Positions 336 to 22,148 of a stretch of 64,000 bases of DNA are shown here, piece by piece (the first letter of the stretch is position 1; each line of letters begins with the position of its first letter). A program made the position numbers and the translations under genes. Below the pieces are notes generated by a model that worked only from the letters and a program-made list of their open reading frames with translations, did not search any database and was not told where the DNA came from. The stretch is from a bacterium (lineage in GTDB: Bacteria; Zhuqueibacterota; Zhuqueibacteria; Residuimicrobiales; Krinioviventaceae): assembly GCA_963674595.2 (NCBI GenBank), contig CAXXFV010000029.1, forward strand, positions 64,001 to 128,000. The letters run 5' to 3'.

Positions 336-758
336 TATAAAAGACAATAGATACAAGCTTTAATATTAAGTAAAAACGGAAACAGATCAATAATAAACTG
401 AATATCCAGGCACACAAGTAACAGAAAAGTCTAAAAACACAGGTAACACTTTAACAAATAACAAAAAACTGCAATGGATTTTGCTCGCCCTGTGAATCTT
501 TCCCAGGGCGTAAATCAGGCGGTATAATTACCCCGATAAATTTAAGGTTTAATGATATGATCGCCCGAAAGTTCCTACCTCTGGCCGTAATAAAGTTTTA
601 ACGTATTATAGCTATAAATTTGGAATGTTTTATATAAAAGGGCAAAGCCCTTTCGTTAATCCGTCCAAGGGTATGAACCATTTGACGATAAAGTTTCCAT
701 CGGGGATATAATCCCGAATCCATTGGTTCCGCAAGGGATTTCAAATCCCCTGCGAGCG

Positions 759-2759: not shown

Positions 2760-3229
2760 GTTCATGGCGTATGGAAAAGGAATTACCGGCTTGTTATGTT
2801 AAATAAGGAACATGCAAAGCCGTAGGGACCTGAGATGTCAAACTGCCCGGCCTTTCGACTCCGCTCAAGGCCCGGACTCTGTGGACGTTGAGCGAAGCCG
2901 AAGGGTGGCCTCATCCTGAGCGGAGTCGAAGGGTGACTGGATTCCTGCTTTCGCAGGAATGACGGGTTTCGATCACATTGTGTCCTTTGTGTATTCTTTG
3001 TGTCCGTTGTGGTAAAAAGATAACCATTTAAAAGTGATTCAATGCAGAGGTTGCAAAGGCGCGCAGAGGGAACCGGAAATTGCCCATCCTTAAAGCGGAC
3101 GCTGCCCGGCCTTTCGACTCCGTTCAAGGACCGGATTTTGCGGACGCTGAACGGAACCGAAGCGGGTGAACAGGGTAAAGCCCATTTTTATCTAGTATCC
3201 TGGAGAAAATTTTTAAGATGATCAAACCA

Positions 3230-3259
3230 TGTAGGGGTTAAAAATTTTTAACCCCTACA
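3230..3259. repeat. GTAG-footed REP palindrome TGTAGGGGTTAAAAATTTTTAACCCCTACA
   Basis: Perfect 30-bp palindrome; further copies at ~8112, ~52366, ~54472 and ~57005. Confidence 0.85.
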
Positions 3260-3320
3260 CATATCAATTGATCGCCCAAAGATTTCCGGGGCGAGCAAAA
3301 ATTAAAGGAAAGTAGCACAA

Positions 3321-4127
3321 ATGAATAAACGAATACTTTTTGTATTGATAGTGTGTTGTATGTTTTCATCTTTGTTGAATTCAATAAAAGCGCAAACGAA
3401 CTGCACATATTATTCAAAGAACAATTGTGATCAGGATCAGATTCTTGAATTACTTGATAGCTGTCCTTGTATTTATGATATAGATACAATCAAAGAATTT
3501 ATTATTAGATTATCAATTCCCGAAATAGAATTACCAAACTCTCTATTTGAAAATTCAATCGTTAGTAAAGTAATTATTGAAGAAAGTGGAGAAATAAATG
3601 CAATTTTATTAAGTAAATCAATCAATTCAAATGCAGATAGTCTACTTGTAAATTCAATATTAGAATCAAAATTTACTCAATATAAAGATACATCATATAC
3701 AAATACTAACTATTGTATTGCATTACCATATCATATACGAAACGGAAAAATCTTTTCATCCATTTATAGTCCAATAGATATAGTTCCATCACAAATGAAA
3801 AGATTAAAAGTAAATAGAAAAACATTTACCCAAACACAACTACCTGATGATACTCCACCTAAACCGATTGACGGTTTTGATGCTATTAAAAGAAATATTG
3901 AATATCCAATATCAGAAAGAGCAGCAGGAATTCAGGGAAAAGTTGTTATAAGAGTTGTTGTTGATGATATGGGAAATATAAGTTCATATCAAGTTTTAAA
4001 ATCTCCATCAAAGAAATTAGCAAAAGCTGCATACAAGGCAATTAAATCTGTAAAGTGGGTACCAGCAAAGCAGAATGGAAAGCCCATATCTGTGTGGGTA
4101 ACAATACCAATTTATTTTAAATTATAA
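3321..4127 (+). CDS. Energy transducer TonB C-terminal domain protein
   Basis: Signal peptide; C-terminal YP..ERAAGIQGKV...WVPAKQNGKPISVWVTIPIYFKL; very AT-rich. Confidence 0.85.
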   Translation: MNKRILFVLIVCCMFSSLLNSIKAQTNCTYYSKNNCDQDQILELLDSCPCIYDIDTIKEFIIRLSIPEIELPNSLFENSIVSKVIIEESGEINAILLSKSINSNADSLLVNSILESKFTQYKDTSYTNTNYCIALPYHIRNGKIFSSIYSPIDIVPSQMKRLKVNRKTFTQTQLPDDTPPKPIDGFDAIKRNIEYPISERAAGIQGKVVIRVVVDDMGNISSYQVLKSPSKKLAKAAYKAIKSVKWVPAKQNGKPISVWVTIPIYFKL

Positions 4128-4521
4128 TTGTTTAAAATATTGTTCACCTTGGGAATGTTTCCTGTGGCGCCAATCAGGCAAGGTATGTACACCGTTAAAT
4201 TTAAGGTTTTATAATTAATATGGACCCGTTATTTAAGAACGGATCAGGGCAATATGCCCTGTTTTATTTTACGGCCCGGAAAAGGAGTTCCGGGGCGAGC
4301 ATGGTTTTGCCGCACCATTGAGTATTTAATATATAAATAAATTCAGAGCCGTGTCACCCTGAGCGAAGTCGAAGGGTGACTGGATTCCTGCTTTCGCAGG
4401 AATGACGGGTTTTAAGCCCTTTGTGTGCTCTGTGACCTCTGTGAGAAAATATCCCTTCCCCATTTGCGTTTAAAGCATTTCTAAAAAAAATCACACCTTC
4501 CCCCATCTTTTTAAAAATCAT

Positions 4522-4550
4522 TTGCGCTAATACTGAATAATTTGTATTAT
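4522..4550 (+). promoter_or_regulatory. Repeated sigma70-like promoter, upstream of the first LVIVD gene
   Basis: TTGCGC-17-TATTAT followed by the conserved leader. Confidence 0.7.
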
Positions 4551-4916
4551 TCATTTATCAGCCACAAAAGACTATTTTCAGGACGATTGGATCGCGCATG
4601 GGAGTTCCTGATGTTCTTTTACTGGTTTTCCACTATCTATAAAAACGGGATTTAAAAGCATACACGAGGAAAAGATTGCGTCGGAGTCCATAGTACACTC
4701 TTGTTACTCCATGGTGTTAATTATTGGATCAGGTATGGTTTATTGAAAATAACAGGATGTCGGTTCTGCCAACCCACTCTGAAAAATATATAAAAAAAAA
4801 TTTCAATGGTGTGTTAAAAATCCATCCGAAAATCAGGAATTTAAAATCATAAAACAAGGGATCAAAAATATAAACTTGTAACTATCCGATTTATTATATA
4901 AAACAAGGAGAAAAGC

Positions 4917-7049
4917 TTGAAAAAGACATTTATTGTTCTATTTATTTATTTTTTAATTGCTCCACTATATAGTCAGGATGGCGATTTACAGCTTTTAAAC
5001 CATTGGCCGGATGGGCCTTGTTTCGCTGTTGCTAAATACAACGATATGATTTTAATAGGTAACGGAGCTTCATTAGACATTTTAGAAATTGACGATTCTC
5101 AACAAGTAAAATGTATCGGTAGAATGACAACACCGGGCGTTATTAAGAATATTGAAATTGCGGGGCAGTTTGCTTATGTCGCTGATTATGCTTCAGGGTT
5201 ACGGATCATATCGCTTGAAAATCCGCAAACGCCATTTGAAATCGGATTTTACAAGAGTTCCTGCAGGATAAATGATGTTGCAATTAAGGGAAATTATGCC
5301 TTTTTAGGCAGCGAATCGTTTGGTGTTAGAGTACTTGATATTAGCGACCCAGCTTCCCCAAAACAGGTTTCTACTTTTGAAACAGGGCAAACGTCGATGA
5401 ACACGTTAGAGATCGTTGGGGATTTTTTATATATTGCAGATGGTTTTTCCGGGATGAAAATATTTAATATTTCCAATCCGCTGTCTCTAACCCTGGTAAA
5501 AGAGTTTGCCACGCAACACAAAGCCATGGATATTTTCATTCAAGGGGATTATGCCTTTGTTGCCGATTATTTTAAAGGACTGCGAATTATAAATATAAAC
5601 GATCCGGCAAACCCTGAAGAAATTGGATTTTATGAAAAGAGTGAAATAATGACTTGGGGTGTTTCTGTATTTGGACACTATGCTTATCTGGCAAATTCTT
5701 ATAAAGGTATTTCTGTTTTAGATATTACAGATTTGCAAAATCCGGTAGAAATTGCAACTGCCGATACACCACATTTTGCTTATAACCTGGTTGTTGATGG
5801 ACAATATATATATGTTGCTGACTGGGATTCCGGTTTGAATATTTTTGAGGCTGGTGATTCTATCGGCTCCGCTCCTGTAGCCTCCTTTGCAACAAGCGGA
5901 CAAGTTGAAGATATAGTTGTTGAAAACGATATTGCATTTGTTGCCTATGGATATTCAGGATTACATATTATTGATGTCAGCAATCCATTTAATCTACAAG
6001 AACTATGTCGCGTGAAATTCCCGGTGCCTGTAACTCATGTGCAGGTGCAGGATAAACATGTTTTTGTTTCAAATTCAAATGGACTTTATATATATGACAT
6101 ATCCAATCCCAATAGTCCCAATGAAATTGGATGGATTGAGGCAAATTGTAATAATTTTACTATCAACAACAATCTTGTTTATCTATATAACGAGGGAGCC
6201 GGTCTTGAAATTTATGATATTTCCGATATAAATAGCCCTGTTTTTATTGCAGGCTATCCGATTAATGGATATTGGTGCCATGACATTAAATACCTTAATG
6301 GTCTCGTCCTGTTGTCCATAGGAGCACCTCCAAATTCCGGGCTGCATACGATTGATGTGCGCGATATTCACAATCCCACACTTTTGGATTTTTGGGACAT
6401 ATGTTATTACACAATCAGTATTTGGAATAATTCGGCTTATTTGTTAACGGCAAGCACACCCTCCAACTCTTTATATCGTCTTGATGCAAGCAATCCCGAT
6501 GCCTTAGAGAAATCCTGGGTATTTGAATGCGTGGGATCAGATTTTTTCATCAAAGATGATCTGGCCTACTTTACAAAGCGCGATATATATATATTTGATA
6601 TGAATCAGCCTGATGGACAACCAAATGAAATAGGATACTTGCCTGATTTATGGTACAATTCAAATGAGATTTATGTTGATGAAAGTCATGTTTATGTAAA
6701 TGATCAAAATGCTGGTTTTTTTATTTTTGACCATAGTACGATCAGTTGGGTACAAAAAGAGACCGGTCCCGAAAATTCTTGCACAATGAAAAGCTATCCA
6801 AATCCATTTAATTCCAGTGTAACAATGACTTTTCAAACAAGTAAAAGCAGTCCTGTAAATTGGGCTGTTTATAATTATATGGGACAAGAGGTTTTCAGCA
6901 AAGAATGTGGTGTTATGGCTGGGGGAATCCACCAGTTTAGATGGAATGGCGAAAACCATCATGGAACACCTGCCCCTTCAGGAGTATATTATATAAAAAT
7001 AGCGACCGACCATCAAATGGAAGTACAAAAAGTTACATTGATAAAATAA
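4917..7049 (+). CDS. Secreted LVIVD-repeat beta-propeller protein with YPNPFN/FlgD-Ig C-terminal domain
   Basis: Signal peptide; repeats of type AYVAD...GLRIIDISxP; YPNPFN...WNG...SGVYY C-terminus. Confidence 0.88.
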   Translation: MKKTFIVLFIYFLIAPLYSQDGDLQLLNHWPDGPCFAVAKYNDMILIGNGASLDILEIDDSQQVKCIGRMTTPGVIKNIEIAGQFAYVADYASGLRIISLENPQTPFEIGFYKSSCRINDVAIKGNYAFLGSESFGVRVLDISDPASPKQVSTFETGQTSMNTLEIVGDFLYIADGFSGMKIFNISNPLSLTLVKEFATQHKAMDIFIQGDYAFVADYFKGLRIININDPANPEEIGFYEKSEIMTWGVSVFGHYAYLANSYKGISVLDITDLQNPVEIATADTPHFAYNLVVDGQYIYVADWDSGLNIFEAGDSIGSAPVASFATSGQVEDIVVENDIAFVAYGYSGLHIIDVSNPFNLQELCRVKFPVPVTHVQVQDKHVFVSNSNGLYIYDISNPNSPNEIGWIEANCNNFTINNNLVYLYNEGAGLEIYDISDINSPVFIAGYPINGYWCHDIKYLNGLVLLSIGAPPNSGLHTIDVRDIHNPTLLDFWDICYYTISIWNNSAYLLTASTPSNSLYRLDASNPDALEKSWVFECVGSDFFIKDDLAYFTKRDIYIFDMNQPDGQPNEIGYLPDLWYNSNEIYVDESHVYVNDQNAGFFIFDHSTISWVQKETGPENSCTMKSYPNPFNSSVTMTFQTSKSSPVNWAVYNYMGQEVFSKECGVMAGGIHQFRWNGENHHGTPAPSGVYYIKIATDHQMEVQKVTLIK

Positions 7050-7210
7050 TTATAAACAATACGCTCGTCCCGGGATTCTACGTAAGGACGCATGAACACA
7101 AGGGCTGTGTCTTTTTACTTTATTCGAGGCAGGCGTCGAATCCAGTTTACCCAGTGGACTGACTTTACCTGTTAATTACATATAATTAATTATAACTTCC
7201 TGGAGGACTT

Positions 7211-7666
7211 TTGAATTATAAAACAAACCCGTATTACGCCAGAAAAATTTTTGCTACAATAATAGACTATGGATTATTTTTAATGGCCACTATTTTATAT
7301 ACAATGCTTATTGGGAGTCCAAATGACCAAGGCGTTTATTCTGTAAATGGGGTACCCGCTCTTATCATACCGACCCTTTGGTTTTTATATTTTATTATTA
7401 TAGAAGGAGAATACTCGAACACACTCGGACATTATTTTCTTAATTTAAAAGTAGTTCAAACAAATGGACAAAAAATTTCAATAAAACATTCCTTAAAAAG
7501 AAGATTATTGGATATTATAGATTTATTTTTTTATGGAATACCTGCACTAATTACAATTTCTAAAACGCCAAACAACCAAAGGTTAGGCGATCTTTGGGCA
7601 GAAACGCTGGTCGTCCATAAAGATGATGTCGAGCATATAAAAAAATATTTTAACAATGAAAAATAA
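7211..7666 (+). CDS. RDD family membrane protein
   Basis: R..A.IID, TLG...LKVV and QRLGDLWAET motifs. Confidence 0.88.
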   Translation: MNYKTNPYYARKIFATIIDYGLFLMATILYTMLIGSPNDQGVYSVNGVPALIIPTLWFLYFIIIEGEYSNTLGHYFLNLKVVQTNGQKISIKHSLKRRLLDIIDLFFYGIPALITISKTPNNQRLGDLWAETLVVHKDDVEHIKKYFNNEK

Positions 7667-7753
7667 TTATCTTGTAATAAATGTGTAATAATGCCAACCA
7701 GATTAATTCACAGGTCGAAACAATGTCATCTTGGGCGGAGCTAATGAGAACGT

Positions 7754-8576
7754 TGCCCGGCCTTTCGACTCCGCTCAAAGCCCGGACTCTGTGGACGTTG
7801 AGCGAAGCCGAAGGGTGGCTGGATTCCTGCTTTCGCAGGAATGACGGGTTTCGATCACATTGTGTCCTTTGTGTATTCTTTGTGTCCGTTGTGGTAAAAA
7901 GATAACCATTTAAAAGTGATTCAATGCAGAGGTTGCAAAGGCGCGCAGAGGGAACCGAAATTTGCCCATCCTTAAAGCGGACGCTGCCCGGCCTTTCGAC
8001 TCCGCTCAAGGACCGGACTTTGCGGACGCTGAACGGAATCGAAGCGGGTGAACAGGGTAAAGCCCATTTTTATCTAGTATCCCGGAAAAAATTTTTAAGA
8101 TGATCAAACCATGCAGGGGTTAAAAATCTTTAACCGCTACACATATCAACTGAACGCCCAAAGATTTTGCTGACGCTGCAACTTCCTGTGGCGCACATCA
8201 GGCAAGGTATGTACACCGTTAAATTTAAGGTTTTATAATTAATATGGACCCGTTATTTAAGAACGGATCAGGGCAATATGCCCTGTTTTATTTTACGGCC
8301 CGGAAAAGGAGTTCCGGGGCGAGCATGGTTTTGCCGCACCATTGAGTATTTAATATATAAATAAATTCAGAGCCGTGTCACCCTAAGCGGAGTCGAAGGG
8401 TGACTGGATTCCTGCTTTCGCAGGAATGACGGGTTTTAAGCCCTTTGTGTGCTCTGTGACCTCTGTGAGAAAATATCCCTTCCCCATTTGCGTTTAAAGC
8501 ATTTCTAAAAAAAAATCATACCTTCTCCCCATCTTTTTAAAAACCATTTGCGCTGGTTCTGTAGAATTTGTATTAT
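7754..8576 (+). repeat. Composite REP module, copy 2 (uninterrupted, ~820 bp)
   Basis: Near-identical to the two halves flanking tonB. Confidence 0.9.
8548..8576 (+). promoter_or_regulatory. Repeated sigma70-like promoter, upstream of dut
   Basis: TTGCGC-17-TATTAT. Confidence 0.7.
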
Positions 8577-8642
8577 GCATACTGTGAAATAAACAGTGCC
8601 TTTTGTGTTACATCTTAAAAACAAGGAAAAGAGAATTTTATC

Positions 8643-9077: not shown

Positions 9078-9252
9078 CTATTTAAAACCGATTTAACAGA
9101 GATCACAAAGGCGTCACCCTGAGCGGCCTTTCGACTCCGCTCAAGGACCGAGTCGAAGCGGGAGCAGGAATGACAGGTTTCGAACGCTGCGTTTAAAGCA
9201 GTTCCGAAAAGAACCCCACCTTACCCACTCCCCTATTTTTCTTAAAAATCAT

Positions 9253-9281
9253 TTGCACCGGTTTTATTTAATTTGTATTAT
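9253..9281 (+). promoter_or_regulatory. Repeated sigma70-like promoter, upstream of hsdRSM
   Basis: TTGCAC-17-TATTAT followed by the conserved leader. Confidence 0.7.
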
Positions 9282-9481
9282 TCTTTTGATAGCCATATTA
9301 GACTTTTCAGGACAATTGGGGCGTGCATGGGAGTCCCTGATGTCCTTTTGCAGGTTTTCCATGATTATTAAAAACGGGATTTAATTACAAAATATATTGT
9401 ATTTATATTATTTACAAAACATTACCGAATTATGCTATGTGTTTAAATAATGATCTAAAATAAAATGAATGTGCATTAAAA

Positions 9482-12280
9482 ATGAAAAATAATATAAATC
9501 AAAATCCGGAACAAATCGCCAGAGACAAAATAGACAAGATGCTCATTGATGCCGGGTGGATAGTACAATCCAAATCAAAAGTAAATTTATCAGCAAAAAA
9601 AGGTGTGGCGGTACGAGAATATTTGACAGACATTGGACCTGCTGATTATGTATTATTTGTTGACCGAAAGCCCGTAGGTGTTATTGAAGCAAAGCGGGAA
9701 GAAGAAGGTGTTCGCTTAACAGTCCATGAAGATCAGGCCGAGTCCTATGCTAAAAGCAAACTCAAACATTTAAACAACGATCCACTGCCATTTGTATACG
9801 AAAGCACCGGCACTTTAACACGCTTTACCAATCACAGAGATCCCAAGCCACGCTCACGGCCTGTTTTTAGTTTTCATCAACCTTCAACGTTGGAAGAATG
9901 GATTAAAAGGCCGGATACGCTGAGAAGCAGGCTTCAAAGAATGCCCGGCCTAATTGAAGACGGATTACGCCCGGCACAAAAGGAGGCCATTAAAAAACTT
10001 GAGGTTTCCTTTAAAGACAATCGTCCAAAAGCATTAATTCAAATGGCAACAGGTTCAGGTAAAACATTTACGGCCTGCACGTTTGTCTATCGATTATTAA
10101 AACATGCGGATGCAAAGCGGATTTTGTTTCTGGTTGACACCAAAAATCTTGGCGAACAGGCAGAACAGGAATTTCTTAAATATCTGCCCAATGATGACAA
10201 TCGAAAATTTACAGAACTGTACAATGTTCAGAGACTCTGTTCAAGCTATATCGCTTCCGACAGTCAGGTTTGCATCAGCACAATTCAACGGCTTTATTCC
10301 ATCCTTCAGGGCAAAGAGCTGGATGAAAAGCTTGAGCAGGAAAACCCGAATGAAAAATTCTGGCAGAAAAAGGAACCGATGCCGGTTGCATACAGTCCCA
10401 AAAACCCTGTAGAACAATTTGATTTTATTATTGTTGATGAATGCCACCGTTCCATTTATAATTTATGGAAACAGGTGCTGGAATATTATGATGCCTTTTT
10501 GATCGGGCTTACAGCAACCCCGGATAAACGAACGTTTGGATTCTTTGATGAAAACGTGGTCAGCGAATACACCTATGAAGACTCTGTTACGGATGGTGTG
10601 AATGTCCCTTATGATGTTTTTACCATTGAAACCAAAATCACAAAAAACGGCGCAAAGATTAAAGCCAAAGAATATGTGGACAAGAGAGAAAAACTGTCAC
10701 GCAGAAAACGTTGGGAACGGCTTGATGACGATTATGAATATACAGCGAAAAAATTGGATAACGATGTTGTCAATCCAAGCCAAATTAGAAACATAATCAA
10801 AGCGTTTAAAGATTGTTTGCCCACGATCTTTCCGGACCGGTTTGATGAAAATGGAGAGTTTGAAATCCCTAAATCATTGATATTTGCCAAAACAGACAGC
10901 CATGCGGATGATATCATCCAAATAGCCCGGGAAGAATTTGCCGAAGGCAATGATTTTTGTAAAAAAATAACCTATAAAATTGATGATGACCCCAAATCTA
11001 TCTTGAACCGGTTCCGCAATAGCTGGGCACCGCGAATTGCCGTAACAGTGGATATGATTGCCACCGGCACGGATGTAAAACCATTAGAAGTCCTGCTTTT
11101 TATGCGGGATGTAAAAAGTATCAACTATTTTGAGCAAATGAAAGGACGCGGTACAAGGACCATCAGTTTTGATGATTTGAAACGCGTCACCCGGACAGCC
11201 AAACATCAAAAAACACATTTTGTAATTATTGATGCCGTTGGTGTTGTCGAATCTAAAAAGACAGACAGCCGCCCGCTTGAGCGCAAGCGGTCTGTTCCTT
11301 TAAAAGATTTATTAGACGCTGTGGCAATCGGCGCACAGGATGAAGACCTGTTTTTATCACTTGCAAACCGGTTGATTCGCCTGGATAAACAGCTTACCAA
11401 AGATGAAAAAATAAAATTTATGGAAATGTCTGACGGCAAACAAATAAACCAGGTGGTAAAAGCGCTGTTAAACGCATACAATCCCGACATTATTGAATAT
11501 AAATCAAAAGAATTGATTAATAACAAACCAAAGCTGGACAGAACACCGGCTTTTGAAGATGCCTGCCGACAACAGGCGCAGGAAGAACTGGCAACACTGG
11601 CTGCCTCCGCCTTTAATGGTGAAATAAACGAGTATCTTGAAAATGTGCGCAAAGTTCATGAGCAGATTATTGATATGATAAATCAGGACAAGGTAACCAA
11701 AGCCGAATGGAACAGTTACACCAAAGACACAGCAAAAAAAGTGGTTAAAGACTTTGGTGAATATCTGCAAAAGCACAAAGATGAAATTAAGGCGCTCTCT
11801 ATTTTTTACAGCCAGCCCTATCAACTGCGGCAGCTTACTTTTAAAATGATTAAAGAGGTTTTGGAAAAACTGAAACTCGATAAACCGTTACTGGCGCCAA
11901 ATTATGTGTGGGATGCCTATGCACAGTTGGAAGCAGTAAAAGGAAACAGCCCCAAAAATGAACTGGCGGCATTGGTTTCTCTTATTCGCCGGGTAACAGG
12001 TCTGGATGAAACATTAACATCATACGACAGCACGGTAAACAGAAATTTTCAAACCTGGGTATTTAAAAAGCATTCTGGTGCAGGGGATAAATTCACAGAA
12101 GAACAGATGGAATGGCTGCGAATGTTAAAAGACCATATTGCCACCAGTTTTCATATTGAAGTGGATGATCTGGATTATACGCCATTTGATGCACAGGGCG
12201 GCAGGGGCAAAATGTACCAGTTGTTTGGAGATGATATGAATATTATAATTGATGAACTGAATGAGGCATTGGCGGCGTAG
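9482..12280 (+). CDS. hsdR: Type I restriction enzyme R subunit (EcoAI/EcoEI-like)
   Basis: ADYVL...IEAK nuclease motif, MATGSGKT, DECH, LTATP, QMKGRGTR; EcoEI-type C-terminus. Confidence 0.95.
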   Translation: MKNNINQNPEQIARDKIDKMLIDAGWIVQSKSKVNLSAKKGVAVREYLTDIGPADYVLFVDRKPVGVIEAKREEEGVRLTVHEDQAESYAKSKLKHLNNDPLPFVYESTGTLTRFTNHRDPKPRSRPVFSFHQPSTLEEWIKRPDTLRSRLQRMPGLIEDGLRPAQKEAIKKLEVSFKDNRPKALIQMATGSGKTFTACTFVYRLLKHADAKRILFLVDTKNLGEQAEQEFLKYLPNDDNRKFTELYNVQRLCSSYIASDSQVCISTIQRLYSILQGKELDEKLEQENPNEKFWQKKEPMPVAYSPKNPVEQFDFIIVDECHRSIYNLWKQVLEYYDAFLIGLTATPDKRTFGFFDENVVSEYTYEDSVTDGVNVPYDVFTIETKITKNGAKIKAKEYVDKREKLSRRKRWERLDDDYEYTAKKLDNDVVNPSQIRNIIKAFKDCLPTIFPDRFDENGEFEIPKSLIFAKTDSHADDIIQIAREEFAEGNDFCKKITYKIDDDPKSILNRFRNSWAPRIAVTVDMIATGTDVKPLEVLLFMRDVKSINYFEQMKGRGTRTISFDDLKRVTRTAKHQKTHFVIIDAVGVVESKKTDSRPLERKRSVPLKDLLDAVAIGAQDEDLFLSLANRLIRLDKQLTKDEKIKFMEMSDGKQINQVVKALLNAYNPDIIEYKSKELINNKPKLDRTPAFEDACRQQAQEELATLAASAFNGEINEYLENVRKVHEQIIDMINQDKVTKAEWNSYTKDTAKKVVKDFGEYLQKHKDEIKALSIFYSQPYQLRQLTFKMIKEVLEKLKLDKPLLAPNYVWDAYAQLEAVKGNSPKNELAALVSLIRRVTGLDETLTSYDSTVNRNFQTWVFKKHSGAGDKFTEEQMEWLRMLKDHIATSFHIEVDDLDYTPFDAQGGRGKMYQLFGDDMNIIIDELNEALAA

Positions 12281-13546
12281 ATGAGAGAAGATTGGATTGA
12301 AGCAGAATTAGGGGAAATTTGTAATATAAATATGGGGCAGTCTCCTCCATCAACAACATATAATGATAGGGGTGATGGACTTCCATTTTTTCAAGGAAAA
12401 GCTGAATTTACTTTACTTCACCCAAAAGTTAAAAAATGGTGCAATAAACCAAAGAAGATTGCTGAAGTTGAAGATATTCTTTTATCTGTTAGAGCGCCTG
12501 TTGGAGCGACTAATATAGCAAATGTGAAATGCGCAATTGGTCGGGGATTAGCCGCGATATCATATAAGCCCTGTATGCTTTTTGTTCTCTACTTTTTAAA
12601 ATTGATAGAAAAAAAATTAGATGAACAAGGTACAGGAACAACTTTTAGAGCAATATCGGGTGCTATACTTAAATCCCAAAAAATTCCTCTGCCCCCTCTC
12701 CCTGAACAACGCGCCATCGTCGCCAAAATAGAAGAATTATTTAGTGAGTTAGACAACGGCATTGCCAACCTGAAAGCGGCCAAAGACAAACTGGAAATCT
12801 ACCGCCAGGCTGTTTTAAAAAAAGCGTTTGAAGGAGAATTGACAAATACAAAAAATATTGAATGGATTACTCTCGGTGAAGTTTGCGATAATGTAGAATA
12901 TGGGACTTCTTCTAAATCAGATAAGGAAGGACAAGTTCCTGTATTACGAATGGGTAATATTCAAAACGGTAAGTTTGATTGGCAAGATTTGGTTTTTACA
13001 AGTGATAAAGAAGAAATTAAAAAATATAAATTACACAAGGATGATGTTTTATTCAACAGAACAAATAGTCCTGAATGGGTCGGAAAAACAGCAATATATA
13101 AAGGTGAAAGGCCAGCAATCTTTGCTGGCTACTTGATTAGAGTTAATTATAAGAAAGATTTAATTGATGGTGATTACCTAAACTATTATTTGAATTCACA
13201 TACAGCTAAAAAATGGGGTAATAAAGTAAAAAGTTTTGGAGTCAATCAAGCAAATATCAATGGTACTAAATTAAAAAAATATCCATTTCCACAGACATCT
13301 TTACAAGATCAAAAAGAAATTGTCATTGAAATCGAAACCCGTCTCTCTGTCTGCGACAATATCCAAAAAAGCATTGATGAAAATTTACAAAAAGCTAAAG
13401 CCCTGCGCCAAAGCATATTAAAAAAAGCATTTGAAGGCAGGTTGCTGAATGAAGAGGAATTAAAAGCCTGCCGCCTGGAACCGGACTGGGAACCGGCAGA
13501 AGAACTGTTGAAACGAATTAAAGATGAAAAGAAAGCCAAAGCATGA
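12281..13546 (+). CDS. hsdS: Type I R-M specificity subunit
   Basis: Two target recognition domains separated by PLPPLPEQ...LKKAFEG conserved regions. Confidence 0.95.
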   Translation: MREDWIEAELGEICNINMGQSPPSTTYNDRGDGLPFFQGKAEFTLLHPKVKKWCNKPKKIAEVEDILLSVRAPVGATNIANVKCAIGRGLAAISYKPCMLFVLYFLKLIEKKLDEQGTGTTFRAISGAILKSQKIPLPPLPEQRAIVAKIEELFSELDNGIANLKAAKDKLEIYRQAVLKKAFEGELTNTKNIEWITLGEVCDNVEYGTSSKSDKEGQVPVLRMGNIQNGKFDWQDLVFTSDKEEIKKYKLHKDDVLFNRTNSPEWVGKTAIYKGERPAIFAGYLIRVNYKKDLIDGDYLNYYLNSHTAKKWGNKVKSFGVNQANINGTKLKKYPFPQTSLQDQKEIVIEIETRLSVCDNIQKSIDENLQKAKALRQSILKKAFEGRLLNEEELKACRLEPDWEPAEELLKRIKDEKKAKA

Positions 13547-15030
13547 GTAACGAATCGAGTATTATATCAAAAGTGTGGAGTTTTGCCCACGTATTGAGAG
13601 ATGATGGTGTGGGGTATGGAGATTATCTGGAACAGATTACCTATTTACTGTTCCTAAAAATGATCGACGAATTTGCCAAACCGCCCTATAACAGAAAAAT
13701 TGCCGTGCCTGAAGGATATGGCTGGGAAAGCCTGAGAAATAAAAAAGGGGCAGAACTAGAACTTCACTATACAACCATGCTCCGAACACTGGCAAAAACC
13801 AAAGGCATTTTGGGACAGATTTTCACAAAGTCACAAAACAAAATTCAAGATCCTGCCAAACTTTATCGCATCATCGATATGGTGGATAAAGAAAAATGGA
13901 GCATGCTGGGAACCGACCTGAAAGGAAAAATTTATGAAGATTTGCTGGAAAAAACCGCCGAAGATACCAAAAGCGGCGCCGGCCAATATTTTACCCCCAG
14001 GCCCCTCATTAAAGCCATGATCGAGTGTGTGCGTCCCGAACCAAACAGAACAATATGTGATCCGGCATGTGGAACAGGCGGGTTCTTTCTGGCCAGTTTT
14101 GATTTTATTGATAAACACCATCCGTTAAATATCGATCAAAAGAAATTCCTGAAAAACGAAACGTTTTACGGCAACGAAATTGTTGCCAACACCCGCCGAT
14201 TGTGCCTGATGAACATGTTCCTGCATAACATCGGTGAACTGGATGGCGGCACCTTTATTTCTTCCACGGATGCTCTTGTTGCGGATGAAGGAAACAGATA
14301 CGACTATGTGCTGACAAATCCCCCATTTGGTAAAAAAAGCAGTATGACCATTACCAATGAAGAAGGCTTGCAGGAAAAACAAGACCTCACATACAATCGT
14401 CAGGATTTTTGGAAAACAACGTCCAACAAGCAGCTTAATTTTTTACAACACATCAAAACATTATTAAAAACCACCGGCGAGGCAGCCGTTGTTCTGCCTG
14501 ATAATGTATTATTTGAAGGCGGTGCCGGTGAAACAATCCGTAAAGAGCTGATGAAAACAACCGATTTGCACACCATATTAAGGCTGCCTACAGGTATATT
14601 CTATGCTCAGGGCGTTAAAGCAAACGTGCTGTTTTTCGATAACAAGGCCGCTTCAAAACATCCCTGGACTAAAGAGGTTTGGGTGTATGACTACCGGACC
14701 AACATCCATCACACCCTCAAGAAAAAACCACTAAATCTGGAAGACCTGAGAGATTTCATTACACTTTATAATCCGTCCAATCGAAACAACAGAACCGAAA
14801 CCTGGTCTGAAGAAAATCCCGAAGGCAGATGGCGTAAATTTACGTATGAAGAAATCATCGCCAGAGATAAAACCAATCTGGACATCTTTTGGCTCAAAGA
14901 TAAAAGTCTGGCAGACCTGGATAACCTCCCTGATCCGGACGTCCTCGCAAGCGAAATTATTGACGATATAGAAGCCGGTTTGGAGAATTTTAAATCGATC
15001 ATGGAGACGCTTAACGGAGAGCGGGTTTAG
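13543..15030 (+). CDS. hsdM: Type I R-M methyltransferase subunit
   Basis: GQYFTP, DPACGTGGF and NPPF motifs; ATGA overlap with hsdS. Confidence 0.96.
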   Translation: MSNESSIISKVWSFAHVLRDDGVGYGDYLEQITYLLFLKMIDEFAKPPYNRKIAVPEGYGWESLRNKKGAELELHYTTMLRTLAKTKGILGQIFTKSQNKIQDPAKLYRIIDMVDKEKWSMLGTDLKGKIYEDLLEKTAEDTKSGAGQYFTPRPLIKAMIECVRPEPNRTICDPACGTGGFFLASFDFIDKHHPLNIDQKKFLKNETFYGNEIVANTRRLCLMNMFLHNIGELDGGTFISSTDALVADEGNRYDYVLTNPPFGKKSSMTITNEEGLQEKQDLTYNRQDFWKTTSNKQLNFLQHIKTLLKTTGEAAVVLPDNVLFEGGAGETIRKELMKTTDLHTILRLPTGIFYAQGVKANVLFFDNKAASKHPWTKEVWVYDYRTNIHHTLKKKPLNLEDLRDFITLYNPSNRNNRTETWSEENPEGRWRKFTYEEIIARDKTNLDIFWLKDKSLADLDNLPDPDVLASEIIDDIEAGLENFKSIMETLNGERV

Positions 15031-15184
15031 CCGCAGGTTGCGCTTCTACCGCACCATTATGTAAAAAACAAATTCAAAGCCGTGTCACCCTGATCGGCCT
15101 TTCGACTCCGCTCAAGGACCAAGTCGAAGGATGACCGGAAAACAGGTTTTTAACAAGATCGTAACTCTAACCGGAGCCATTAAC

Positions 15185-16681
15185 ATGGAATTTAACAGAC
15201 GCAATTTTATCAAAACGGTCGGTATGGGCGCCCTGTCATCAGGATTAGCAGGATTTCTGCAGTCGTGCGCTAAACAATCGTCCCCGCCCAATGTGATATT
15301 CATCCTGTCCGATGACCTCGGCTATGGCGACTTGGGCTGCTATGGGGCCACACATTTTGAAACACCCGCCTGCGACCGTCTTGCCAATGAGGGCATGCGC
15401 TTTACGGACGCCCATTCAGCCTCTGCCGTTTGCAGTCCCACCCGTTACTCTGTGCTGACCGGGCGTTATAGCTGGCGCAGTTGGCTTAAAAACTGGGTGC
15501 TTATGGAAAACCATCCCCTGTTGATTGATACGGACCGGCTCACCATGGGTAAAATGTTCCAAAAGGCCGGTTACACAACCGGATGTATCGGTAAATGGCA
15601 CCTGGGCTGGGGCACGGACCTGAATACCGATTTCAGCGGCGAGGTCAGTCCCGGACCATTAGAAGTGGGATTTGACTCGTTTTATGGTGTTCCATTCAGC
15701 CACAACAGTTCCAAACCGCTGCAGGTATTTATACGCGACCGGCATATCGAGAACCTGAAAAACGGACTCAAGTATAACAGCGAAGAGGCCATGAAAGATA
15801 CGGTCCGCGAGCTGGAGGACACGGCCATTGATCTTTCCAAAGAGGCTGTTGCATTTGTAGAGCGGAACAAAGACAAACCGTTCTTTCTCTATTATCCCAC
15901 CACCAACATACACTTTCCCCTGACGCCCAACAGCCGTTTCAAGGGCGCTTCAAACGCCGGCGTTTACGGTGACTTTGTCGTCGAGTTTGACTGGGCGGTG
16001 GGTCAGCTTCTCGATGCACTGGACCGCAACAACCTCACCGACAATACAATAGTCGTGCTCACCAGTGACAACGGCGGACGGCCCGACCCGGACATGCACG
16101 GCCACAAATGTAACGGGCCCTGGCGCGGCACCAAAAGGCAGATATACGAAGGCGGCCACCGGATACCCCTGATTGTGCGCTGGCCGGGTAAAGTTGAAAA
16201 AGGCTCCACCTCTAACGAGACGGTCTGTCTCACAGATTTTTTTGCCACTTTTGCCAATTTGCTTGACCAGCAGCTTCCTGAAAATGCCGGTGAAGACAGT
16301 TATGACCTGACGAACCTGTTGCAGGGCAAACGTTATGAACAGCCGCTGCGTGAGGCCACGGTTCATCACTCTGTGTCCGGGCAATTCGCCATACGCAAAG
16401 GCGACTGGAAACTGATAGAAGGCAGCGGCAACGGTGATTTTCCCAGGGATGCGGAAAACCACATCGATATAAAAGTGAGGAATCCCGAAAAGGACCCGGA
16501 AACCGGTAAATGGAGCAAAATGGATTACTTTTTGTTAAAGCCCGACGGAGAATTCCAGCTTTATGACCTGAAAAATGATCCTGCGGAGGAACACAATCTC
16601 GCTGAAAAGCGCCCCGACAAAGTTAAGGAATTATATGCCCTGTTGAACCATTACCGTTCAGGTAAAAGATCAGCGTCATAA
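15185..16681 (+). CDS. Arylsulfatase-family sulfatase with Tat signal (probable lipoprotein)
   Basis: NRRNF Tat motif, DDLGYGD, CSPTR, GKWHLG, SDNG; start placed at ATG 15185 after GGAG. Confidence 0.93.
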   Translation: MEFNRRNFIKTVGMGALSSGLAGFLQSCAKQSSPPNVIFILSDDLGYGDLGCYGATHFETPACDRLANEGMRFTDAHSASAVCSPTRYSVLTGRYSWRSWLKNWVLMENHPLLIDTDRLTMGKMFQKAGYTTGCIGKWHLGWGTDLNTDFSGEVSPGPLEVGFDSFYGVPFSHNSSKPLQVFIRDRHIENLKNGLKYNSEEAMKDTVRELEDTAIDLSKEAVAFVERNKDKPFFLYYPTTNIHFPLTPNSRFKGASNAGVYGDFVVEFDWAVGQLLDALDRNNLTDNTIVVLTSDNGGRPDPDMHGHKCNGPWRGTKRQIYEGGHRIPLIVRWPGKVEKGSTSNETVCLTDFFATFANLLDQQLPENAGEDSYDLTNLLQGKRYEQPLREATVHHSVSGQFAIRKGDWKLIEGSGNGDFPRDAENHIDIKVRNPEKDPETGKWSKMDYFLLKPDGEFQLYDLKNDPAEEHNLAEKRPDKVKELYALLNHYRSGKRSAS

Positions 16682-16771
16682 AAGGGCCAAGCCCTTTCGG
16701 TAATCCGTATAAGGGTAGAGAACATTTGGACGATCAAAATGAATCTAATAAATAGGGAGGATAATTACATT

Positions 16772-17236
16772 TTGAAAAGACAAAAACATACAATAGGCGC
16801 TATTGTAAAAATAAAAATTGACCATGAGTTTCAGACTTATGCCAGGATTCTCAATAATGCAAGTTATGCATTTTACGATTGTCGAACAAAAAATGATATT
16901 AAAGACTTAAATTTAATAGCATCAAAACCTATTTTATTTATTTTATCAGTTTATAAAAGCGCAATTACAAAAGGAAGGTGGTTAAAAATTGGTACTCTTC
17001 CTTTAGAAGAAAAATTAAAAAGCCTTCCTTTGACATTTATTCAAGATGACTTGAATCCAAATATTTTTCAAATATACGATCCTAATACAGGTGAATTTAG
17101 AAAAGCTTTAAAAGAAGAGTGTTTGGACTTGGAATGTGCATCTGTATGGGAAGCTGAACATGTAGAAGAACGTTTAAGAGATCATTACGATGGGAAACCA
17201 AATGTGTGGGTAGAACAATTAAGAATAAAATTGTAG
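16772..17236 (+). CDS. Imm26-like immunity protein
   Basis: G.IVKI, FYD, W..IG and ASVWEAEHVEERLRDHY.GKPN pattern; probable TTG start after GGGAGG (the ORF is open from 16739). Confidence 0.75.
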   Translation: MKRQKHTIGAIVKIKIDHEFQTYARILNNASYAFYDCRTKNDIKDLNLIASKPILFILSVYKSAITKGRWLKIGTLPLEEKLKSLPLTFIQDDLNPNIFQIYDPNTGEFRKALKEECLDLECASVWEAEHVEERLRDHYDGKPNVWVEQLRIKL

Positions 17237-17362
17237 AATGGGCCATTTAAGCCCATCATTTAACCGATACTTAAATTTGTAATTATTTGTATAAATATTT
17301 TCCCTACGGTTATCTTTTTGCCGGGTTCCACAAAAGAATCCGACCTACAACTTGGAAGATCA

Positions 17363-17420
17363 AGGGATGAAATCCCGAATTCATTGGTTCCGCAGGGGAT
17401 TGCATATCCCCTGCGAGCGG
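17363..17420 (-). repeat. CGCTCG-footed two-hairpin unit (CAGGGGAT..ATCCCCTG subfamily)
   Basis: Copies at 701-759 and 21976-22032; partial at ~45355 and ~47427. Confidence 0.8.
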
Positions 17421-17465
17421 AGAATTGCCCAAATGTAAAAGAATGGAAAGTAAAGGTTTAAGCTT

Positions 17466-17975
17466 TTGGATAAATATAATAGAAAATTAAATGAGAGTCT
17501 TTTTCTAGCTGAATTTTACAATCATATCAAACTATTTGGATTCAAAAAAACTGGTAAAACGTTTTGGAAAAATAAAAACGATATAAAATTTTTAATTAAT
17601 TTTCAAAAATCTCAATGGGATACTTTATTTTATATAAATATCGGTTTTTACTTTGAATCACTAAAACCTTTAGAAAAAAAAGTACCCAAAGATTACGAAT
17701 GGCATTTTTGTAACAGGATTAATTCATTAATAGAAATGCCTAAAGTTAGTCTTGAAAAATTAACTAATTACAATCTCCCAGAAGAAAAAATCGTAATATC
17801 CGTGAATGAACTATTTAGCTATTTTAAAAATGACATTATTCCATTAATGGATAAAATTGGTAATTATTCCTATTTAAAAAATAATTTTAGTGATTCTGCA
17901 ACATTTAAAGGATTTATAATTCAAAATTTAAAATCATCGGATTTTCTTAATTTTTTTCAAAAAAATTCTAATTGA
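17466..17975 (+). CDS. DUF4304 domain protein
   Basis: GFKKTGKTF...INFQKSQW...FYINIG pattern. Confidence 0.75.
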   Translation: MDKYNRKLNESLFLAEFYNHIKLFGFKKTGKTFWKNKNDIKFLINFQKSQWDTLFYINIGFYFESLKPLEKKVPKDYEWHFCNRINSLIEMPKVSLEKLTNYNLPEEKIVISVNELFSYFKNDIIPLMDKIGNYSYLKNNFSDSATFKGFIIQNLKSSDFLNFFQKNSN

Positions 17976-18562
17976 TAAATTTTTTATCGCCCAAAAATTC
18001 TGCCACATCTGGAACTTCCCTGGGCGCAAATCAGGCGGGGTATTTACCGGGATAAACCCAAGGTTTAATAATATAAGCATTAATATAGGCCCGTTATTTG
18101 AGAACAGATCAGGGCAGATGCCCTGGTTTATTTAAAGGGCAAAGCCCTTTCGTTAACCCGTCCAGGGGTAGAGAACCCCTGGACGATCAAACAATCAGCA
18201 GCAGGGGCCTTTCGACTTCGCTCAAGGACCGCAAATTACCCAACCTTGAAGCGGACGCTGAGCGGAGTCGAAGCGGGAGCAGAGTAACCATGTCATCCTG
18301 AGCGGAGTTAAAGGGTGGGCGTGGGGTAACACCAAATGGTTTTGCAGCTTTAAATTAAACATCAAATTCATTCAATAATAATGTTATGAGTAAGAAAATA
18401 TCTTGTAAAGAAGATAAAAAAGTATTATCTATTGTTATTATATATAGGTCTAACCAAGGTTGATGGATTTGAACAATAGAACATATACAATCGTTAGGCA
18501 GCACCTGATAATGGAGGTTCAGTATATTACATTTTTGATGTGATTTTCTGTATATTAATTGC

Positions 18563-19546
18563 ATGAACATGATTGACAAAAAAATTAAAGAGTTTCAAAT
18601 TTGGTACAAAAATGAATTACCTCATCATGAAGAGGCGATAAGCTTTTTTTCTAACCTGATTATCGAAATTCCAAAAGTAGAATCTGTCAGTAGCAGGGTT
18701 AAAACTTTGGATGAATGTATTAATAAATTCAAACGAAAATATTTATCCTCTTTAGAACAGGAAAACAAAGAATATAAAATTAATAATTACATTACCGATT
18801 TAATAGGAATACGTGCAATCTGTTTATATTCTGAAGATGTCTATAAAATAAGGCAAAAACTGAAAAAATATTTTCAAGAAGTTGAAATAACAGATAAATC
18901 AGGCCAATTAGAAAAAACCGATGATAAATTCGGTTATAAAGGGGTGCACCTGCAATTGGCCCTGAAGAATCGATTAAAGGGGATTCCGGATCAGGCAAAA
19001 TTCAAAAAAATTACATTTGAGCTTCAAATTCATACGATTATACAGGATGCATGGAGTATACTGGATCACAAAATAAAATACAAAAAAAGTATACCTCAAA
19101 ATCTTAAGCGAAGAATTAACCGTTTATCAGCTCTATTTGAAATTGCTGATGATGAGTTTTTAAGCATCCAGAAAGAAATTTCCCTGGAAGAACTAAAAAT
19201 TAATAAAAGGCTCCAAAGGGGCGGAAAAATTGAACGAACAAAAGCCCTTGATGTATTCCGGTTTTTGTTCATTTCATTGAAATATTTCCCTGATTACTAC
19301 TTTGTAGAGTCTAAAATTGATGGATTTGTTCAAGAAATTTTAACGCTCAATAGCAACTTTACAGAAGGAGAATTAAATGAAGCATTAAAATTGCATCTCT
19401 CTTTTGTAAATAAAATAGAAATAAAAATAAAACAAAATTTGAATCCATATACAAAAATCCGATACTGTTTATACAAGTTCGATTTTAAAAACTTTGAATC
19501 ATTATTGTCTAAACATCAGCAGGGCATAATAAATAGTTACACTTAG
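18563..19546 (+). CDS. RelA/SpoT-domain protein (small alarmone synthetase-like)
   Basis: RVK....I.K, DLIGIR, GYKGVH, ELQIHT..QDAW..LDH...YK; no hydrolase domain. Confidence 0.88.
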   Translation: MNMIDKKIKEFQIWYKNELPHHEEAISFFSNLIIEIPKVESVSSRVKTLDECINKFKRKYLSSLEQENKEYKINNYITDLIGIRAICLYSEDVYKIRQKLKKYFQEVEITDKSGQLEKTDDKFGYKGVHLQLALKNRLKGIPDQAKFKKITFELQIHTIIQDAWSILDHKIKYKKSIPQNLKRRINRLSALFEIADDEFLSIQKEISLEELKINKRLQRGGKIERTKALDVFRFLFISLKYFPDYYFVESKIDGFVQEILTLNSNFTEGELNEALKLHLSFVNKIEIKIKQNLNPYTKIRYCLYKFDFKNFESLLSKHQQGIINSYT

Positions 19547-19942
19547 TGGGTGGGTTAAATAATAATTACTATTTCCAAATCGATGTATAATAATAGATGT
19601 GATGCAGTAAATTCAATAGTGCGGACAGGAAGCTTGAACGTTGCGTATTCTATACGCCAGGTTACAAGTTGCAGGCCGGCATACAATTTTAAACCATGTC
19701 ATTTTTATATTTAAAGCGGACCCTGAGCGGCCTTTCGACTTCGCTCAAGGACCGAGCCGAAGCGGGAGCATGAATGACAGGTTTCGAACCTTCTGCGATC
19801 TCTCCGCCTTTGCGTTAAAAGCAATTTTTAAAAAAAACCACCATCACCCCGGGTAAACCGTCATTTTCCTTTAAATTCAATAAAAATGAGTCAATCCGTT
19901 GCAGAATAATATATAATTCTATATATTATTACAACGAGTTGA

Positions 19943-21895: not shown

Positions 21896-21934
21896 GATGA
21901 CAGTTGCTTTTTATAAGCGGGAAAGTCGACCTAG

Positions 21935-21963
21935 TGTCACCCTGAGCGGAGTCGAAGGGGGAC
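21935..21963. repeat. GTCACCCTGAGCGGAGTCGAAGGG REP-like family (example copy)
   Basis: Many copies, e.g. 4353, 8376, 9113, 15084, 18292, 25898, 32650, 45320, 47389, 52480, 60490. Confidence 0.85.
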
Positions 21964-22119
21964 ACTTTTGGGATAGGGGATGAAATCCCGGTTTTATTGG
22001 TTCCGCAGGGGATTTCCAATCCTCTGCGAGCGGAGGCGTTTAGGCGGTTTTTGATGCCCTGCTGTTTTTATTAATTATCAACCTCTGCCCTACCCTCACC
22101 TATTTTTCTCAAAAACCAC

Positions 22120-22148
22120 TTGCGCTAATACTGTAGAATTTGTAATAT
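22120..22148 (+). promoter_or_regulatory. Repeated sigma70-like promoter, upstream of DUF262
   Basis: TTGCGC-17-TAATAT followed by the conserved leader. Confidence 0.7.

Follow-up and report, generated by a model that had tools for sequence, protein, structure and literature searches.

Which process places a protein-coding gene exactly within a palindromic repeat, when a nearly identical copy of the surrounding DNA stands close by without it? The question is raised by a stretch of 64,000 nt (the window) on contig C29 of a bacterial genome assembly from the family Krinioviventaceae. In this window an intergenic block of ~820 bp is present in a filled form (copy A, 2844-4550), which carries an AT-rich gene encoding a TonB_C-domain protein, and in an empty form (copy B, 7754-8576). 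The initial annotation had read the pair as capture of a gene cassette by an integron-like system using a site other than attC. As laid out below, the locus is a REP/RAYT system (repetitive extragenic palindromes and REP-associated tyrosine transposases) with gene shuffling at REP hairpins, and it is not integron-like. The palindromic site is H1, the left terminal hairpin of a non-autonomous element that we named E1, and the segment with the gene looks like DNA from between two separate E1/REP hairpins and not like a circle with one palindrome. Two traits are unusual, the association of a RAYT-derived miniature element with AT-rich accessory genes and the presence of half-hairpins at both ends of a gene-sized segment. 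The parts of the two copies are as follows, LM being a repeat unit that is described further below.

2844-3285, plus strand: left mosaic block of copy A, made of several repeat families, the last ~135 nt being LM with the hairpin GGGGTTAAAAATTTTTAACCCC
3268-3298, plus strand: left-junction hairpin, formed by TTGATCGCCC (3268-3277), the L-type end of LM, and the insert arm GGGCGAGCAA within 3284-3298
3286-4158, plus strand: segment of 873 nt present only in copy A, in the order right-type arm, 5' leader, gene, left-type arm, loop TGT
3321-4127, plus strand: AT-rich TonB_C-domain gene (GC content 0.28, 268 aa; Pfam E-value 1.6e-20; TIGR01352)
4140-4301, plus strand: E1 of copy A, with the left arm (4140-4155) from the insert and 98.6% identity to copy B from 4159 onwards
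4302-4550, plus strand: right mosaic block of copy A, with a promoter-like box at its end (TTGCGC, 17 nt, TAATAT family)
4917-7666, plus strand: LVIVD gene with a type IX secretion system (T9SS) tail (4917-7049) and RDD gene (7211-7666), between the two block copies
7754-8167, plus strand: left mosaic block of copy B, delimited by BLAST
8168-8182, plus strand: resident left arm of H1 in E1, a stretch of 15 nt that copy A lacks
8168-8325, plus strand: E1 of copy B, the intact "empty" site
8326-8576, plus strand: right mosaic block of copy B, upstream of dut

A BLAST comparison of copy B with copy A gave two collinear matches, with positions 1-414 of B corresponding to 1-442 of A at 90.7%, and 430-823 of B to 1316-1707 of A at 96.7%. 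The lower value on the left is mostly due to one 28-nt indel, i.e., one extra unit of a 28-nt repeat, which is the only large difference between the two left blocks, and overall the left and right blocks, which are intergenic and together ~820 bp long, are ~97% alike. The 28-nt unit contains a small hairpin of the GTCACCC...GGGTGAC type and is found in tandem (5.3 units) at 57096-57244 and also at 2888. Between the two matches, the 15 nt of B at 8168-8182 give way in A to 873 nt at 3286-4158, exactly at the palindrome to which the initial annotation had pointed, and the empty and filled copies are therefore real. By direct reading the motifs it had quoted are all in place: TTGCTGACGCTGCAA-C-TTCCTGTGGCGC at 8167-8194 in the empty site, and TTCCGGGGCGAGCAA at 3284-3298 as well as TTGTTCACCTTGGGAA-TGT-TTCCTGTGGCGC at 4140-4170 at the left and right end of the insert, which is thus flanked by two imperfect inverted arms. 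The half-site TTCC.G.GGCG is duplicated and present at both insert ends (3284 and 4159). The breakpoint on the right can be placed exactly, at 4158|4159, and that on the left lies within TTT (3283-3286). All four breakpoints are in or at palindrome arms, each located just 3' of a left-type arm and 5' of the TTCC of a right-type arm. From this pattern an attL/attR-like insertion had been deduced. However, the resident 15-nt left arm is gone from the filled copy, so that the pattern is one of replacement and not of plain insertion.

Both forms were found in independent Logan contigs assembled from public sequencing runs (X3-X6, belonging to three studies), of which X3 and X4 may be the source sample, whereas X5 and X6 are labelled as other organisms. 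Contigs of X3 (3235-4202, 0 differences) and X6 (3233-3618, 0; 3611-4301, 5) bridge the filled form, and contigs of X3 (8053-8226, 0), X4 (8065-8420, 2) and X5 (8117-8415, 6) the empty form. Since both junction forms are bridged in separate contigs, neither of them is an assembly artefact. X5 has no cover over 3388-3909 and X6 almost none over 4954-7563; no contig joins across these gaps, and hence they are no evidence of absence.

The gene on the segment had been called an AT-rich tonB gene. It is AT-rich and its product has a TonB_C domain at the C-terminus, but the N-terminus looks by eye like a signal peptide, and the protein is not a canonical TonB. Among 5.8 billion proteins only the query itself was returned at E≤1e-10, no full-length match above 38% identity was present in 19 genomes of the family, and metagenome contigs gave nothing above 43% identity. 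The assembly contains no second copy of the gene; the only paralogue (C19:1574-2299) is 38% identical and its flanks are without E1 arms. When the locus was searched for in 30 relatives, none of them from the same genus, only the DEAD-box helicase gene was matched (66-70%). The start of the segment, TTCCGGGGCGAGCAA, shares 14 identical nt with the right end of both E1 copies, A and B, and 17 nt with the copy at 43893-44061, and its end, TTGTTCACCTTGGGAA-TGT, is a left arm of a subfamily seen at C13:67214 and elsewhere. The segment thus has an E1 right-end arm at its beginning and a left-end arm of E1 at its close, and the two arms belong to different partner types (CCCCGGAA/TTCCGGGG upstream, CCTTGGGAA/TTCCCAAGG downstream), both of which argue that it was cut from between two separate hairpins. 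A circle carrying one gene and one palindrome, as suggested earlier, is at odds with the different partners of the two arms and with the missing resident left arm. The 15-mer of the right arm has 12 matches in the genome with at most one mismatch, compared to one in a reversed-sequence control, and of these 12 only that of the insert lacks its cognate left arm just upstream; a census with 10-mers at up to two mismatches was at chance level, and only the 15-mer is informative. At the left junction the new partners fold into a hairpin of -9.1 kcal/mol (z-score -3.25), a value that was reached by one of 200 shuffled sequences. Given arms that are repeats specific to the lineage, and an orphan gene, we infer that the segment moved within this lineage, without naked arrival from outside.

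E1 is ~168 nt long. A profile search retrieved 29 copies at E≤1.3e-15, of which 12 are located on C29, 14 on C13 and one each on C26, C18 and C6; accordingly, 26 of the 29 are clustered on two contigs, which contribute about 5% of the 6.6 Mb assembled, and the element is not dispersed. BLAST yielded 27 matches in this genome and only marginal partial hits in two of the 30 relatives. The element has two terminal hairpins, H1 and H2, that are inverted to each other and have outer extensions TTGCT...AGCAA, as well as inner hairpins, the fourth hairpin of E1 being followed by a T-run and terminator-like. In copy B, H1 consists of the left arm at 8167-8181 and the right arm beginning with TTCC at 8183. 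When this structure was supplied by hand to an alignment of 17 sequences, 81% of the cells paired, compared to at most 50% with slid partners, and changes on both sides were found in 4 of 11 pairs of H1 and 4 of 10 pairs of H2. These compensatory changes support two local terminal hairpins in E1; RNAalifold predicted no structure on the alignment. GC skew was compared with the orientation of E1 as well, and it tracks the strand of the genes and changes sign within contigs, which makes it uninformative on replication. Besides the copies in A and B, the following E1-related features are found in the window.

482-560, plus strand: left half of an E1 (profile positions 2-78)
4245-4261, plus strand: terminator-like hairpin and T-run inside E1 of copy A, which the RAYT gene unit carries at its end and E1 has retained
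18008-18136, plus strand: E1 starting 25 nt past the stop codon of an AT-rich DUF4304 gene, with its right hairpin replaced
35547-35676, plus strand: E1 starting 51 nt past the stop codon of an AT-rich LVIVD gene
43893-44061, plus strand: best full-length E1 of the window, between a CRISPR-like mini-array and a DUF4268 gene

The source of E1 is found on the same contig. It had been suggested to look for genes of Y1 HUH transposases flanked by the same hairpins, and one of the eight Y1_Tnp matches in the genome is of this kind. RAYT-1 is an open reading frame (ORF) of 183 aa at C29:188857-189408, outside the window and 117 kb downstream, in a gene unit that extends over 188.77-189.46 kb. The left part of E1 (profile 3-77) lies upstream and the right part (profile 69-167) downstream of the gene as inverted palindromes, and in the alignment the last RAYT-1 codons are the middle of E1 and the terminator hairpin of the gene is its fourth hairpin. 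E1 is therefore an internal-deletion derivative of this single intact RAYT gene unit. The RAYT-1 protein scores 108.8 bits on the model NF047646, "REP-associated tyrosine transposase" (cut-off 80), but only 20.6 bits on the IS200 model NF033573, where it fails the cut-off of 55; its H-x-H (HUH) motif and its tyrosine (YI..NPV) align with those of TnpA-REP of Escherichia coli (4ER8). Two paralogues (50% identity, and 47% for the one that contains a stop codon) each have a hairpin family of their own, and one of these families also occurs in the window (7061, 24187, 31131, 32669, 45110). RAYT homologues are present in 13 of 30 relatives searched. The E1 arms begin with CTCGCC and have no GTAG tag, whereas the family of the paralogue RAYT-2 begins with GATCGTCC, a CGTC-like tag. 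The same CGTC-type beginning, GATCGTCC, is shared by the palindromes that flank a second RAYT paralogue (C29:40582-41121, minus strand) and those around the best homologue in a relative (genome G018, locus L045), and CGTC-tagged REPs were reported by Di Nocera et al. (2013, PMC3733652) to be without a dedicated transposase.

The block around the site is not a single 820-bp module, as had been supposed. BLAST of copy B against the whole genome showed that its sub-units vary in copy number from ~2 to ~24 with low-copy linkers between them, and a repeat finder returned at least six families in the region. The block is a mosaic of several palindromic repeat families with an architecture like that of bacterial interspersed mosaic elements (BIMEs). 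The unit next to the site, LM, comprises ~135 nt with the hairpin GGGGTTAAAAATTTTTAACCCC and ends in TTGATCGCCCAAAGATT. It has nine copies in the genome, after a tenth, spurious match of 30 nt on C20 had been dropped. A left arm with the TTGCTG signature follows LM in eight of the nine, five of which continue into a contiguous E1; in two copies the sequence switches to something else after the left arm, and the LM of copy A is the only one without it. Three LM copies of the window, apart from A and B, are the following.

52202-52630, minus strand: LM and an E1 that breaks off where its right hairpin has its 5' foot; with the next entry it forms a pair of direct repeats around a Reg_prop gene (96.8% over 434 nt)
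54280-54741, minus strand: LM and full E1, the other direct repeat
56947-57115, minus strand: third LM copy and bare palindrome of left arm and right-end arm (56947-56979; fold -10.2 kcal/mol, z-score -3.6), then the leader of a TPR gene

In the last of these the left block is kept and the left arm is directly followed by a right-end arm, which forms a complete palindrome before the sequence turns into the 5' region of the TPR gene; the switch at the site that the initial annotation had reported for this third copy is therefore real. The two direct repeats of LM and E1 flank the T9SS-tailed Reg_prop gene at 52887-54191, a layout that is the pattern of a single circle crossover or of a local duplication. 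Larger blocks recombine locally too, as is seen for this gene and for the LVIVD-RDD pair between the ~97% identical block copies.

These units also bear on the age of the two forms. The arm of copy B is of the LM type and carries the TTGCTGAC signature of the left block, and it is unique in sequence, while the flanks of B are 97-98.6% identical to A; B was therefore not repaired from another paralogue. Together with the five of nine LM copies that run straight into E1, this shows that the empty form is the ancestral one, in agreement with the initial annotation, and that A is derived by replacement of the arm. The boundaries of other E1 copies coincide with the breakpoints: 12 of the 29 end at profile positions 137-149, after TTTATTTAA, the 5' foot of H2, and then continue into differing sequences, and two (C13:65928 and C29:213173) start at TTCC without a recognisable left arm. 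Counted in alignment columns, the start at TTCC is 19-20 nt away from the first inner hairpin, on its 5' side, and the TTTATTTAA end is 10 nt away from the last one, on its 3' side. The cleavage sites described for TnpA, the Y1 transposase of IS608, are at such distances too, 19 nt on the 5' side of the left hairpin and 10 nt on the 3' side of the right one (PMC3201880). This is a resemblance only and may be a coincidence. By our own reading, TTCC is preceded by T in 23 of 28 E1 copies, no other base of the flank being biased, and the left flank at this position is itself a hairpin arm.

From these observations a mechanism can be sketched. The segment would have been cut out between two E1/REP hairpins elsewhere in the genome of the lineage and pasted at H1, the cognate RAYT would cleave and strand-transfer on single-stranded hairpin DNA, and the TonB_C gene would be a passenger between the two cut sites. 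RAYTs are described to cleave and join single-stranded REP DNA in vitro, and for those characterised the cuts fall on CT dinucleotides, either 5' or 3' of the hairpin, and the GTAG tag is required (PMC8266576). We tentatively regard such a RAYT-mediated cut-and-paste as the likeliest single mechanism, with the catalyst presumed, though it falls short of an even chance. Several observations weigh against it. The cuts map to loop positions, the tag GTAG is absent, and the cut bases are T|T or C|T without a single motif. There is one event only, and a simple loop cut-and-paste would keep the resident left arm, which is lost here. The microhomologies of 2-5 nt at the junctions (TT; TTCC) are typical of host illegitimate recombination. 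The hairpin at the right junction is weak (-2.2 kcal/mol, z-score +0.56) and is no outlier among the H1 energies of the E1 copies, which range from -13.4 to 0, so that a "chimeric hairpin" is not statistically demonstrable. The E1 copies are mostly 76-86% alike, which is no sign of recent transposition. Finally, the joint of ~4155 to ~3284 that a circle or an excision would leave was not among the Logan-contig joints listed, where contigs drop rare forms.

Some of these points are explained about as well by recombination of the host without any transposase. REP hairpins would extrude on single-stranded DNA and be broken, e.g., by an SbcCD-type nuclease, or would provoke template switching, and a fragment with hairpin-loop ends would then be joined by microhomology while resection removes one arm. 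Palindromes are fragile and are cut in the loop. Microhomology is present at both junctions, TT(T) at 3283-3285 and TTCC at 4159-4162, and the loss of exactly one recipient arm is readily explained by resection but less easily by transposition. Hairpin feet also coincide with further block boundaries of the region, and most E1 copies are old and diverged. Host recombination is nearly as likely as catalysis by a RAYT, since it fits the arm loss and the microhomologies about as well. It has more difficulty with three donor and recipient ends that are intact to the base beside the arm, without resection, with the recurrence of the same two positions as family boundaries in 12 and 2 copies, and with the spacing of these boundaries from the inner hairpins, which equals that described for a Y1 transposase (PMC3201880).

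RAYT catalysis could also be thought of in wider terms. The enzyme would nick single-stranded DNA just 5' of the right arm (TTCC.GGGCG) and mobilise whatever lies between successive nicks; the ~140-nt E1 core and the accessory genes would then be units of the same kind, and the E1-trailed gene arrays would represent an HUH-driven cassette system without integrase. We consider this generalisation doubtful. A bare palindrome at C13:27859 was looked at as a candidate for the predicted arm-to-arm joint; it resembles such a joint, but it simply trails an ordinary gene with a GC content of 0.48 and was rejected.

Somewhat less likely still is a dedicated platform for recurrent capture, the reading of the initial annotation, in which single AT-rich genes would enter resident hairpins as half-hairpin-bounded cassettes and build up the co-oriented arrays on C13 and in the window. 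It draws on the positions of the E1 copies. Fifteen of the 25 copies with a left end trail a co-oriented ORF of at least 110 aa with a GC content of 0.22-0.39, the stop codon being 4-51 nt upstream; of the others, two follow an ORF at 91 and 119 nt, five follow LM, one a CRISPR-like array and two short ORFs. The 500 nt upstream of E1 have a GC content of 0.335 compared to the genome mean of 0.388 (500-nt windows, Mann-Whitney p 3e-5, 28 copies), and the 500 nt downstream, with 0.375, do not differ (p 0.26). On C13, a run of co-oriented single genes between 58 and 85 kb, many of them without a Pfam family, includes eight that are trailed by E1. Such a link to AT-rich genes is the opposite of what is described for Pseudomonas, where atypical strain-specific regions are REP deserts (PMC3390384). 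However, only a single filled/empty pair was found, and the 5' flanks of the other 14 genes have no consistent right arm. A genome-wide scan for filled and empty forms returned 148 chains that were mostly tandem-repeat artefacts; the tonB pair was recovered, and the few other chains inspected were different neighbours of mosaic units and not insertions. There is no recombinase beside the arrays and no circle among the Logan-contig joints listed. E1 carries a putative terminator, which would explain copies that trail genes in the orientation of the gene, so that orientation and position may come from selection, and the look of a cassette array can be explained by this terminator. The stretch on C13 (58001-85260, ~27 kb) also encodes a CAP12/Pycsar-type TIR protein, an RHS fragment, an RDD protein and an ankyrin protein, as well as one DDE transposase on the opposite strand.

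Very unlikely is a filled form that is ancestral. The gene would once have stood between two full E1 copies, the "empty" form would have arisen by recombination of E1 with E1, and A would later have been stripped of most of its upstream E1. Deletions do occur at inverted and direct repeats, and blocks of this region have been duplicated and recombined. Two deletions would be required, though, each ending exactly at arm boundaries; the arm of B is of the type found at eight of nine LM copies and yet unique in sequence, between flanks that match A as described above, and there is no trace of an upstream E1 core at 3278-3284. That one of the forms is a repeat mis-join is hardly credible, even in a repeat-rich region where many run contigs break, since separate contigs from the runs of three studies bridge each junction with 0-6 differences.

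Returning to the REP/RAYT system, the comparison with known systems shows both its kinship and its peculiarities. With REP/BIME sequences and their RAYT ("REPtron") it shares a single-copy Y1 HUH gene with inverted flanking palindromes, dozens of extragenic copies in mosaic clusters, and membership in an enzyme family that is described to cleave and join single-stranded hairpin DNA in vitro (PMC8266576). In contrast to them, E1 is without GTAG, and it is a unit of 168 nt that keeps pieces of the transposase gene, whereas REPs have 20-40 nt; its copies are clustered on ~5% of the genome, close to AT-rich accessory genes, and half-hairpins enclose a segment of the size of a gene. REPINs (Bertels and Rainey; PMC3116915, PMC3337134) are likewise described as non-autonomous, with two inverted REPs, and as thought to be moved by RAYTs. 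Whereas REPINs have a short spacer and fold into a single long hairpin, E1 has a spacer of ~110 nt with inner hairpins and a remnant of the RAYT C-terminus, and its ends fold locally. The families with long terminal inverted repeats that flank RAYT genes, and the REP dimers inserted inside target palindromes, as presented by Di Nocera et al. (2013, PMC3733652), are similar in their longer inverted repeats, moderate abundance and palindromes within palindromes. Here, the inserted item is a protein-coding gene, and a link of the family with AT-rich genes is absent from the excerpt of that account. IS200/IS605 elements such as IS608 and their miniature derivatives have subterminal hairpins and are moved by a Y1 transposase in a "peel and paste" mode on single strands, and the spacing of the E1 boundaries is like theirs (PMC3201880). 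A conserved target tetranucleotide is not evident beyond the bias of its last base to T, and RAYT-1 is a RAYT by its model scores and not an IS200-type enzyme.

Integron cassettes (attC x attI/attC, IntI) are similar inasmuch as the genes are co-oriented, each with a structured repeat, the junction is located inside a palindrome and empty and filled forms exist. In integrons, the attC boxes R''/L''...L'/R' have the pattern RYYYAAC ... GTTRRRY, and the site folds into a single long imperfect hairpin. No such pattern was found by inspection of E1, the ends of which read TTGCTCGCC...GGCGAGCAA. Furthermore, the tyrosine recombinase family PF00589 has eight matches in the genome, none of them on the E1-rich contigs C29 and C13, so that no IntI-like recombinase is near the arrays; the catalyst, if any, would be an HUH enzyme. 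Together with the two local terminal hairpins, this speaks against the integron-like capture system that had been proposed. Of the earlier interpretation, the relation of empty and filled copies, the palindromic breakpoints and the HUH enzyme as candidate thus hold, but the analogy to integrons and the circle with a single palindrome do not. It had also been said that the window encodes no integrase, resolvase or transposase, and indeed no such domain was present among 41 scanned ORFs of at least 110 aa, a protein with HTH_23/HTH_28 at 45581-46174 being ambiguous. The pdif modules of Acinetobacter, which are compared by description only, are similarly bounded by short palindromic recombination sites and served by a housekeeping-type recombinase, but these are described as XerC/D sites (PMC12907356). 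No report of gene acquisition flanked by REPs was found in the literature searched.

The genes of the window fall into two GC classes of about 0.22-0.31 and about 0.45-0.53, which are interleaved gene by gene with long repeat-filled spacers between them. Imm26, DUF4304, RelA_SpoT, GmrSD, TPM and RDD genes, the TonB_C gene and others belong to the low class, and the helicase, sulfatase, katG, FGGY and other genes to the high class. A defence-type stretch at 9482-24174, entirely on the plus strand, contains hsdR, hsdS, hsdM, Imm26, a gene for a RelA_SpoT-domain protein and GmrSD, interleaved with sulfatase and formylglycine-generating enzyme (FGE) genes. The promoter-like box at the end of the right mosaic block (TTGCGC, 17 nt, TAATAT) is found at 1122-1187, 4497-4694, 8523-8602, 9228-9423, 22095-22290, 24892-24972, 32729-32863 and 41114-41241, upstream of unrelated genes, namely those for the DEAD helicase, LVIVD, dut, hsdR, GmrSD, LigB, a second LVIVD protein and an ORF of 129 aa. 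Most copies are followed by a conserved leader of ~100 nt, without an Rfam match, and the box could be a portable promoter or 5' untranslated region or a small RNA. Rfam and tRNA scans of the window were empty. The CRISPR-like mini-array (43431-43709) consists of four repeats of ~37 nt with a spacing of 78-79 nt directly upstream of E1, and no Cas domain was present among the scanned ORFs of the window. Elsewhere in the genome, a repeat of ~1.1 kb has at least five copies (on C16, C19, C23, C29 and at C25:54077-55124), four of which share an insertion of 339 nt relative to the C25 copy.

The cellular role of RAYTs, and the way in which REPs spread and shape genomes, are unsettled, as the biochemistry is in vitro only and products formed in vivo are scarce. 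The locus described here provides a natural product, in which a gene-sized segment is enclosed by two half-hairpins of a RAYT-linked family, with its empty site 4.9 kb away and an intact enzyme gene on the same contig. It supplies exact substrates and predicted cut positions for an assay of cleavage and strand transfer. If the RAYT makes these joints, REP systems would move passenger genes, and the linkage of E1 to AT-rich genes would gain a mechanism. If it does not, the locus would still be a clean case of palindromic repeats as breakpoints of gene gain, and of a transposase-derived repeat as a portable terminator.

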